A stretch of DNA of 64,000 bases from a virus (lineage: Duplodnaviria; Caudoviricetes), in the IMG/VR virus record IMGVR_UViG_3300006922_000005. The stretch is one strand, 5' to 3'. How positions within the stretch are numbered: position 1 is the stretch's first letter; the number at the start of each line of letters is the position of its first letter. The position numbers were made by a program, and so were the translations under genes. Shown piece by piece: positions 700 to 5,014 of this stretch. The notes under the pieces were generated by a model. That model had not been told where the DNA came from. It saw nothing but the letters and a program-made list of their open reading frames with translations, and searched no databases.

Positions 700-798
700 A
701 AATGCTACCGCTTGTCGCTTCGCTCTAGTAAAAAATTTTCCGCAAACGCTTCGCTTGTTGTTGGCCTAGAACCACCCCCGCACACTATGTACACACAC

Positions 799-804
799 TA
801 AATA
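799..804 (+). promoter_or_regulatory. T4-type late promoter core (TAAATA) upstream of the riboswitch
   Basis: TAAATA; T4 late spacing puts +1 at 810, one base before riboswitch P1. Confidence 0.7.
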
Positions 805-809
805 CACAT

Positions 810-853
810 ACGTTCAGACAATAGTCCGGAAGTAGCATAATGCGAAGGAACGC
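810..853 (+). ncRNA. glutamine riboswitch, glnA (glutamine-I) class, cis-regulatory
   Basis: CGTTC(811-815)/GAACG(848-852) P1; GAC-AATA-GTC P2; CGGAAGTA junction; GCA-TAA-TGC P3; GAAG E-loop strand; conserved C after P1; SD GGAGG at 871-875 and ATG at 881. Confidence 0.88.
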
Positions 854-880
854 ACCTAACTTTAACAAAAGGAGGGTGAA

Positions 881-1072
881 ATGAGCAGATTCGATCATCT
901 ACACAAACAGTACAGAGAGGCTCGTGTGAAAGCACGTAAGAATGCCATACTTGCACGTAGTCGACTAAACGTTGACACTAATGCAGGTGGTACTAGTGGA
1001 TACACTGTCAAGCACGGAGCCAACACAGGTCTTGTGCTTAACCATATAACTGTATCCAAACGAACTATATAA
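881..1072 (+). CDS. small basic protein under glutamine riboswitch; possible GS-inactivating-factor-like
   Basis: 63 aa, strong SD (AAAAGGAGG), Arg/Lys-rich N-half with K-x-R-x3-I-L-x-R. Confidence 0.75.
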   Translation: MSRFDHLHKQYREARVKARKNAILARSRLNVDTNAGGTSGYTVKHGANTGLVLNHITVSKRTI

Positions 1073-1132
1073 CGACACTCAGGGGCTTGTTCAAACGATG
1101 AGTCCCTGTGCGTACACTCGTTAAATACACAT

Positions 1133-1813
1133 ATGCGTAAGTACATATGGCGACATCACGAAATACCCTTTGCACAACAGTTCACAGATCTAGCACCTCA
1201 ATTGATGCAAGACTTTTTACAAGTTCATCCTGAAGTACTAGAACAACAAGAACAGCAGAGCAAGGGCGATGAAGAAAAGTATTGGCATGACATCAACGGG
1301 TGGGTGCCTTTGGGCGTACTCTATCAAAAGCAGTGGGCAGACAAAGAACGTGTGATCAAAAAAAACTATCCCACAGCACACAAACTAGTAAAGATGTTTG
1401 GCGATGATGTAAACGTAGCAAGTTATAGTTTGCTCAAACCAGGTGCAAAGATTCCACTGCACAACGGAGATGAAGAAAACCGTTACTGCAAATACATAAG
1501 ATGTCATATACCTTTGATGATACCTGAAGGTGACATGGGTCTTTGGGTTATGGGTCAACGCATAGGTTGGAGAGATGGTGTGTTTGGTTTTGACAACTCA
1601 GGCGTACACATTGCATGGTCAAATGCTACCACAAACAGATTGGTTTTTATTATAGACATACACAGATCAGCATTGGGAATTCCACCCAACAAGTACATGC
1701 GTAGTCGTTGGGACTGGTGGGAATACACCAAGTTATGCACCGCCGCAGTGTTTAGAACTGTGGTAAATACGTTTAACAAGGAGATACTCTATGGCACAAA
1801 AAGAAGTAGATAA
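1133..1813 (+). CDS. aspartyl/asparaginyl beta-hydroxylase domain protein (AspH/LpxO-like 2OG-Fe(II) oxygenase)
   Basis: SLLKPGAKIPLHNGD...RCHIPLMIP...FGFDNSGVHIAWS...RLVFIIDI pattern. Confidence 0.8.
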   Translation: MRKYIWRHHEIPFAQQFTDLAPQLMQDFLQVHPEVLEQQEQQSKGDEEKYWHDINGWVPLGVLYQKQWADKERVIKKNYPTAHKLVKMFGDDVNVASYSLLKPGAKIPLHNGDEENRYCKYIRCHIPLMIPEGDMGLWVMGQRIGWRDGVFGFDNSGVHIAWSNATTNRLVFIIDIHRSALGIPPNKYMRSRWDWWEYTKLCTAAVFRTVVNTFNKEILYGTKRSR

Positions 1814-3997: not shown

Positions 3998-5014
3998 TTA
4001 TTCTGCAAAGTAAGTTTTCGCCAATAGTTGAATCTTCAAGCCTGTTACTTTAGATGATACTATTTTTTGCATTGTGTATATCTTACCGTATCGTTCAACT
4101 GCTTCTGCGACATCTTTAATATCGTTGTCGGGCCATTCAGGAAACGAAACGCTCCATCCATATTTAACTGCATCGGTTACCAGTTGTTCTCCACTTTGAT
4201 CCTTGTCAGGAACAACTATAACTTCACGTTGTAGACTGTTAATAAGCATACTCTGTTGATCGTTTACTTCATTACGTAGTACTGCTACACCGCCTACACT
4301 AATAGCATCAAACGGACCTTCTACTACAATTACAAACTGTCTATCATATCCTTGACCATCTAAGTTAAACACATAGCCTGGTTGACTATCTGTAATATAC
4401 TTAGGTGAGCCGTCGCCTAGTTTACGAGCAGTGTATCCGACTATGTCCCCTTGATAATAAAATGGAACTATCAGCCTTGACTTGTATGATCCTTCGCAGG
4501 TCCACATAAAGTCGTAGTCCTCAATATCAAGGCCACGATCGTTAACTATATATTCGACGGCTCTAATGAACTCTGGATCTAATCCACTTGGTTCGAGTGC
4601 TTTCCAATCATGCCACTCCATTATAGGTTTGGCACCAACTGGCAGTTCTTTCTTTTCAAATACAGGCAACTGTATAGTAGGTGTTCCACCGTCTATGACG
4701 TGCTCCTCTTTTATACGTAGTGCCTCCAAAGCAATTTTGGTTATCTCTGAGTTTGGCATTCCGAACCATCCAAGTAGTTTCTTCATCTTGTAAGATAAGT
4801 TTCTACCCGGAATGAATGATGCTGTATAGCCACAGTTAAAACAGTGATAACTCACTGTACCGTCACCATTAAACATTATTCCACCACGCTTACGTTTGTC
4901 TGTGCTTTCGCCGTTATGAACACAGCATGGAGCATCAAAAGAAATCCACCCACTAGGAGTTTGCTTTCTTTTTGCAGGCAAGGTAGTCGTAATGCTAGAT
5001 TGTATCGAATTCAT
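3998..5014 (-). CDS. DNA primase (T4 gp61-like)
   Basis: N-terminal Zn finger (PCCVH...YHCFNCG), TOPRIM VEGPFDA and VPDKD; adjacent to helicase. Confidence 0.88.
   Translation of the reverse strand: MNSIQSSITTTLPAKRKQTPSGWISFDAPCCVHNGESTDKRKRGGIMFNGDGTVSYHCFNCGYTASFIPGRNLSYKMKKLLGWFGMPNSEITKIALEALRIKEEHVIDGGTPTIQLPVFEKKELPVGAKPIMEWHDWKALEPSGLDPEFIRAVEYIVNDRGLDIEDYDFMWTCEGSYKSRLIVPFYYQGDIVGYTARKLGDGSPKYITDSQPGYVFNLDGQGYDRQFVIVVEGPFDAISVGGVAVLRNEVNDQQSMLINSLQREVIVVPDKDQSGEQLVTDAVKYGWSVSFPEWPDNDIKDVAEAVERYGKIYTMQKIVSSKVTGLKIQLLAKTYFAE

Follow-up and report, generated by a model that had tools for sequence, protein, structure and literature searches.

The window, by which we mean the whole 64,000-nucleotide stretch of viral DNA that was analysed, carries a type-1 glutamine riboswitch aptamer placed directly behind a late-promoter-like box and shortly upstream of an ORF of 63 codons. 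The riboswitch most likely controls translation of this 63-aa protein. The proposed mechanism is a composite, in which a late promoter starts the RNA at the aptamer and a hairpin after the aptamer covers the Shine-Dalgarno sequence (SD). We consider this composite probable, and the assignment of the aptamer to Rfam family RF01739 is held with far higher confidence. For the remaining parts, we infer the start site, the binding of the ligand, the ON direction and the protein target. The features are collected in Table 1.

Table 1. Positions of the riboswitch, its predicted control elements and neighbouring features in the window.
Feature	Position	Strand	Basis
CTAAATA, T4-type late-promoter core (TAAATA 799-804)	798-804	+	Box before late genes, conserved spacing
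Predicted +1 (A), one base upstream of P1	810	+	Inferred from TAAATA-N5-ATG
Glutamine aptamer core	811-852	+	RF01739
P1, CGUUC/GAACG	811-815 / 848-852	+	Sequence
P2, GAC/GUC, loop AAUA	817-819 / 824-826	+	Sequence
Junction CGGAAGUA	827-834	+	Sequence
P3, GCA/UGC	835-837 / 841-843	+	Sequence
GAAG	844-847	+	Sequence
C directly 3' of P1	853	+	Sequence
Outer helix of the SD hairpin (CACC/GGUG within)	853-857 / 874-878	+	Fold, covariation
Inner helix of the SD hairpin, CUUU/AAAG	860-863 / 868-871	+	Fold, this window only
Shine-Dalgarno GGAGG, 5 nt before ATG 881	871-875	+	Sequence
63-aa ORF	881-1072	+	Basic N-terminal helix and motif N-x-G-G-T-S-G-Y-x-V-K-x-G-x-N
12-bp hairpin without U tract, between ORF stop and next TAAATA box	1080-1108	+	Fold of 1068-1135
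Second exact copy of the riboswitch's 12-mer TAAATACACATA, abutting ATG 1133	1122-1135	+	Exact repeat
2OG/Asp-Asn beta-hydroxylase-like gene	1133-1813	+	PF05118, E 3.5e-18
TAAATA 5 nt before ATG	1133, 40358	+	Exact spacing
TAAATA 5 nt before ATG	23933, 29265, 30874, 31311, 31664, 36126, 47168	-	Exact spacing

The aptamer was identified by cmscan with Rfam 15, which matched RF01739 (type-1 glutamine riboswitch) at 809-856 on the plus strand with 46.9 bits (gathering score 35; E 4.1e-07). The match is full-length (model 1-53) and is the sole Rfam match in the 64 kb. The first-pass annotation had placed a phage-borne type-1 glutamine aptamer at 811-853 and had suggested checking it with the Rfam glnA model and looking for covarying copies in related phage contigs. 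This score and the same match in relatives bear the assignment out. In 14/14 related loci the aptamer precedes a homologue of the 63-aa ORF by about 25 nt, with RF01739 scores of 45-60 bits; these are the loci with a full-length standalone ORF and enough upstream DNA, which leaves out L009 (ending at a contig edge) and L017 (encoding a fusion protein). Run on 22 distinct leaders of the 63-aa protein family, RNAalifold gave the three aptamer stems (P1, P2 and P3) and one further hairpin de novo. Compensatory changes were seen in each of the three pairs of P2 and of P3 and almost no pair was broken, while P1 was invariant, so the covarying copies do exist. The equivalent of C853 was also invariant among the matches listed (50/50 aligned TAAATA-linked copies). 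C853 is the probable partner of G829 in the ligand-bound state, and it would correspond to the residue numbered C60 in the crystal structure and C68 in Synechocystis, as described in PMC6212724 and PMC11477058. The window aptamer is predicted to bind glutamine.

The bases after P1 form the second part of the mechanism. RNA 848-885 folds to a hairpin of -10 kcal/mol (z -4.68; 0/200 shuffles fold as well), and folding of the whole leader gave the identical hairpin. Bases 874-875 of the SD are inside the outer helix and base 871 is inside the inner helix. The outer helix was recovered de novo by RNAalifold in the 22 copies. It was also followed in 50 copies among the matches listed, picked solely by having a TAAATA box, where 88.9% of its cells were paired, versus 14-69% in slid controls. 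The fourth pair is CG in 31, UA in 14 and UG in 3 of these copies, and the covariation score was 0.235 versus 0.137 ± 0.015 for shuffles, a signal that comes mostly from one pair in copies related to each other. A permutation test was then applied to 114 viral copies among the matches listed, in which tails (the seven bases that follow GAACG) were paired with targets (the segment from the SD to the start), the longest helix was taken, and tails and targets were permuted. The mean pairing was 4.82 bp versus 4.33 ± 0.05 bp after permutation (z ~9), a value reached in 0/1000 permutations. The matched partner types in this set were CACCU/GGGUG, CACUU/GAGUG, CACUUU/GAAGUG and CAUCUUU/GGAGAUG. The inner CUUU/AAAG helix is absent from the RNAalifold consensus structure of the related copies and therefore counts as a prediction for this window only. 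The SD-covering hairpin claimed in the first-pass annotation thus stands in part. Its outer helix is supported by the fold and by covariation of the fourth pair, whereas its inner helix gained no comparative support. All four strands are found in the sequence where they had been placed (CACC 853-856, GGUG 875-878, CUUU 860-863 and AAAG 868-871).

CTAAATA occurs 14 times in the window, and its intergenic copies precede the tail sheath gene, the tail tube gene, ORF 14597 and the riboswitch. TAAATA was found exactly five nucleotides before an ATG at 11 sites, compared with 1.17 expected per offset and 0-4 at the other offsets, and 8/11 of these sites start ORFs of at least 110 aa, terminase and tail tube included. 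This spacing suggests that many late mRNAs of the phage are leaderless, and its simplest reading is that late RNAs would start at the sixth base past the box. The TAAATA-N5-ATG sites leave no room for a Shine-Dalgarno sequence. Applied to the box at 799-804, the N5 rule puts +1 at A810, so the transcript is predicted to begin one base before P1. The same box and start had been proposed earlier from T4 late spacing, and both are now favoured by the excess at offset five and by the boxes before structural genes. TAAATA-N5-A is kept in all 15 related loci, followed by 0-10 nt to P1. In IMG/VR, a scan with an exact pattern located aptamers on at least 120 contigs; among the matches listed, TAAATA is located 5-15 nt upstream of P1 in 71/125 non-redundant viral aptamers (mode 6 nt), compared with a background of ~1% per 22-nt window. 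The late promoter probably transcribes the riboswitch. Scans of 400-2000 for sigma-70 promoters and intrinsic terminators stayed at background level, and no terminator was called in the leader.

Relatives of the 63-aa ORF were found in 16 IMG/VR contigs with 53-98% identity, and a profile search of 1.84 billion representative proteins gave 72 small-protein representative clusters at E<=0.001. The protein matches no Pfam or NCBIfam family and has one weak PHROG match of unknown function. In the AlphaFold2 model (mean pLDDT 68), the basic helix 3-27 is the sole confident part. Searches of PDB-sequence profiles and the ESM Atlas with the family returned nothing meaningful, and matches to the designed propeller 'Cake' and to FG-GAP were discarded as they are due to the short N-G-x-G-T-x-G-Y loop motif alone. 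Homology to IF7 or IF17 was rejected as well. The hhalign probability was 0.2% against an IF7-like profile and 0.1% against a YRG/DUF4278 profile, built from 11 and 34 proteins of cyanobacterial loci, respectively, while the positive control, IF7 versus IF17, reached 93.9%. The small-protein domain also occurs as an in-frame extension at the C-terminus of S-adenosylmethionine decarboxylase (L017:3-347 and proteins P0035, P0056 and P0046). These fusions make up 2 of the 72 clusters plus L017, with a Pfam AdoMet_dc match shown for P0035 and P0056, and they come from AT-rich phage contigs in which no riboswitch was found at gathering score. A functional link of the family to polyamine synthesis is possible on this basis. 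Downstream of the ORF, the region 1068-1135 folds with -20.5 kcal/mol (z -3.6). The hairpin at 1080-1108 is not called by the terminator scan, and it may be a 3'-end or stability element.

The source of the window is a large uncultured T4-core marine myovirus, as shown by its T4-core proteins and by best matches to PA5oct-like phages. Family searches identified a DnaB-type helicase, a UvsX-like recombinase and a gp32-like protein of the T4 core, and also a large terminase, a 1128-aa tail sheath, a tail tube and a gp15-like protein. ORF 3998-5014 matched no family and looks primase-like by reading of its sequence. The best tblastn matches of the helicase and the terminase are the PA5oct group (Pseudomonas jumbo phages) and Atu_ph07 / Phosso at 48-55% identity, and cyanophages were not among them. 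The GC content of the window is ~35%. Nucleotide and protein BLAST of the region and of the 63-aa ORF against 50,697 GenBank phage records, a set that may lack near relatives, gave no match. The first-pass annotation had implicitly set the riboswitch in a cyanophage and gifB frame. That frame has to be given up, as the closest cultured relatives are PA5oct-like jumbo phages and the small protein shows no detectable IF7/IF17 homology. The host of the phage is probably not a cyanobacterium.

The family profile matched 140 of 201 genomes that were sampled from one order, that of a Pelagibacteraceae (SAR11) genome, so the family of the phage gene is widespread among SAR11-type genomes. These 140 genomes have one copy each, mostly on large chromosomal contigs. 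Because the family is single-copy and chromosomal in most of the sampled genomes, the phage cassette is best read as a captured host-type small regulator together with a riboswitch. The weaker profile matches form a 56-aa subfamily that is clearly related; by the translated upstream sequence, this subfamily seems to lie just downstream of an IscA/ErpA-like gene. A cellular locus with the same arrangement as the window was found on a 263-kb contig of a Pelagibacteraceae MAG (L227), which carries the aptamer, the CACCU/GGGUG platform and a member of the 63-aa family. The possibility that this contig is a mis-binned jumbo phage was rejected, since its genome has no match to the window terminase and its neighbouring genes are cellular, a DEAD-box helicase and a LysE-type transporter as read from their translations.

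Upstream of the 12 best cellular homologues (12 of the 13 cellular copies checked), RF01739 is absent at gathering score, and six cellular leaders scanned against Rfam 15 matched no family at E<=1. Thirteen distinct copies (L258-L269 and L278) share another leader of ~70 nt, located ~75 nt upstream of the small-protein gene. It contains two tandem hairpins, and each loop pairs with 3-4 bases past an A-rich linker, giving two H-type pseudoknots. In alignment A5, a small sample of related sequences, 95.1% of cells were paired (slid controls 18-37%), 7 of the 16 pairs were compensatory and both pseudoknot helices were 100% paired. This leader is not among the Pelagibacter motifs listed in the consulted portion of Meyer et al. 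2009. The double-pseudoknot leader is a candidate cis-regulatory RNA and possibly a riboswitch, to be taken as a lead and not as a result. By the logic of 'same gene, different aptamer', it might even represent a riboswitch class of its own, which is a doubtful reading. A third, different hairpin-rich leader is found in other subclades of the small-protein family in this order (L272, L273, L276 and L280-L289).

The aptamer is also found outside this family. The pattern is frequent in genomes of marine SAR11, SAR116, SAR86 and other proteobacteria, often in tandem, and the genes that follow read from their translations as an ammonium transporter, glutamine synthetase and glutamate synthase. Eight viral loci (L018, L020, L022, L032, L043, L092, L118 and L122) have a GTA-N8-TAC box upstream of the glutamine riboswitch, which looks like an NtcA site; they control a 26-33-aa peptide, MKTKNNWQL... 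in most of them, via a different anti-SD register. In six others (L036, L052, L088, L112, L132 and L134), tandem aptamers precede a 49-53-aa peptide ending in ...NPFYP, and two SAR86 genome contigs (L146 and L167) have the same CAUCUUU/GGAGAUG platform as these viral loci. Three relatives of the window contain the freshwater-2 RNA motif (RF02980) above gathering score (L006:3535-3604, L007:3535-3604 and L012:3535-3607), ~340 nt downstream of the small ORF. RF01739-type aptamers in twelve cyanobacterial loci (L138, L149, L158, L184, L186, L188, L198, L202, L203, L214, L239 and L245) directly precede IF7-like (gifA-type) proteins of 49-56 aa and have a CGCCUC/GAGGCG platform. In cyanobacteria, aptamers of this type therefore precede IF7-like genes and not DUF4278/gifB genes alone.

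Taken together, the mechanism would work as follows. The late machinery would read CTAAATA and start at A810, one base before P1. Without ligand, C853 and the next four bases would pair with 874-878, and this hairpin would bury the 3' half of the SD, so that the 63-aa ORF would be poorly translated. When glutamine is abundant, the junction base G829 would pair with C853. The first pair of the hairpin would then open and the hairpin would no longer stack on P1, so that the SD would be freed and the 63-aa protein would be made. As glutamine would free the SD, synthesis of a single late protein would follow the nitrogen status of the infected cell. The control may be kinetic and act during transcription, with a weakly binding ligand facing a hairpin of -10 kcal/mol.

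Other explanations of the locus were weighed against this SD-release mechanism. The aptamer could be real and yet act mainly on RNA stability or as an OFF switch, altering decay but not SD access. A 5' end buried in P1 would change the access of 5'-end-dependent RNases, and this would agree with a predicted start one base from P1, with a leader that has no terminator and with the mention of the glutamine riboswitch in two cyanobacterial RNase E papers (PMC8682795, PMC10939160). For an OFF switch, the aptamer of marine proteobacteria precedes amt, glnA and gltB, genes for which repression by glutamine would be more sensible, and this placement indicates that the aptamer class is not tied to one direction. 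However, the helix between the tail and the SD is conserved and covaries as the SD-access mechanism predicts, and the design matches the proven gifB ON switch (PMC6212724). We regard an effect through stability as unlikely, and give an OFF switch the same low standing.

It is quite improbable that TAAATA 799-804 is not a functional start and that the riboswitch lies inside a longer transcript, for example one from before ORF 457-699. Among the assembled metatranscriptome contigs, a 638-nt contig of a related variant spans 404-1045, as such a transcript would, and no gp55-like late sigma factor was found by Pfam and PHROGs among the 25 window ORFs scanned. This contig, however, differs by 40 mismatches and 21 gaps and may be library DNA; it is upstream read-through or DNA carry-over. 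Another RNA-library contig of 229 nt is confined to 824-1052. The TAAATA-N5-A spacing is conserved among the relatives whereas the sequence upstream of the box is not, and several relatives have a terminator-like hairpin directly before the box. A further metatranscriptome contig ends at 1132, adjoining the predicted leaderless start at 1133, and the contigs are weakly compatible with the late-promoter model. That the window aptamer is decaying and non-functional is hardly credible. P2 is shortened to 3 bp, below the consensus length, and the score is below that of the relatives (59.5 bits) and the lowest of the family except L004. The score is nevertheless 12 bits above gathering, and the invariant junction bases are all intact. 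Two independent contigs with a protein of 97-98% identity have retained this short P2, and GAC/GUC in the window versus GCC/GGC in L015 is a compensatory change.

With SD release from a late promoter as the preferred reading, the 63-aa family is a concrete candidate for a protein-level response to glutamine level in phages and perhaps in SAR11. The uncatalogued structured leader of the SAR11 order is a candidate for ligand-binding tests. SAR11 lacks PII and NtrBC (PMC3870248). A broader and doubtful idea is that the 63-aa protein is a SAR11-type nitrogen-status effector that the phage captured with a glutamine switch, and that the cellular leader is maybe a third glutamine sensor. If this were true, SAR11 and its relatives would own a small-protein nitrogen regulator that is analogous, but unrelated, to cyanobacterial IF7/IF17.

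The closest known system is the gifB leader of Synechocystis sp. PCC 6803, a type-1 glutamine riboswitch that works as an ON switch (Klahn et al. 2018, PMC6212724). In the gifB model, an invariant C (C68; C60 in the crystal) directly after P1 leaves the helix at the ribosome-binding site and pairs with a junction G upon glutamine binding, by which the site becomes accessible (PMC6212724, PMC11477058). The switch mechanism claimed in the first-pass annotation is the one published for this leader (PMC6212724), so the SD-release step is an established proposal that was rightly applied. The window has the same covariance-model family, with the three-stem core, CGGAAGUA and GAAG. Its invariant C after P1 likewise opens a short strand paired with the ribosome-binding site, and its aptamer likewise belongs to the 5' UTR of a gene for a very small, basic protein. 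The two differ in the promoter, which is of an NtcA-repressed host type for gifB and a phage late-type TAAATA box in the window, and in the anti-SD strand, which is CGCCUC/GAGGCG in gifB and CACCU/GGGUG in the window. The gifB product is IF17 (DUF4278), whereas the window protein has no detectable homology to IF17 or IF7. The window platform shares its design with cyanobacterial leaders of the gifA and gifB type, in which C-GCCUC is paired with GAGGCG.

T4 late promoters consist of a TATA box of 8 bp, placed roughly one helical turn ahead of the start, and are read by gp55 together with gp33 and gp45 (PMC2988020). The window box resembles them in being AT-rich with a TAAATA core, in having no -35 element, in preceding structural genes and in a predicted start ~6 nt on. 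It differs in its form, (C)TAAATA and not TATAAATA, and in that many late genes of the window are apparently leaderless (box-N5-ATG).

Phage glutamine riboswitches are already known, and the window adds one more example; the novelty claimed earlier for a phage-borne switch does not hold, since such switches have been published in cyanophages, pelagimyophages and Melnitz-like phages. The consulted portions of these papers report them in T4-like cyanophages such as S-CREM1 (PMC9964418, PMC9602691) and in the genomes of Melnitz (a methylophage), Mosig and pelagimyophages, with the Melnitz switch assigned to tmRNA control (PMC9004378). As in those portions, the window has RF01739 in a large T4-related marine myovirus, for which nitrogen sensing during infection is proposed. 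The late-promoter junction, the SD hairpin and this small-protein target are not described in the same portions of PMC9964418, PMC9602691 and PMC9004378. Judged against them, the generality of the junction between late promoter and aptamer, the covariation of the SD hairpin, and the identity of the protein family with its SAR11 distribution are apparently new. The aptamers of uncultured marine phages typically follow a late-promoter box directly, and they appear to gate one of several unrelated tiny basic proteins via an SD hairpin. This comparative picture is more useful than the riboswitch example itself.
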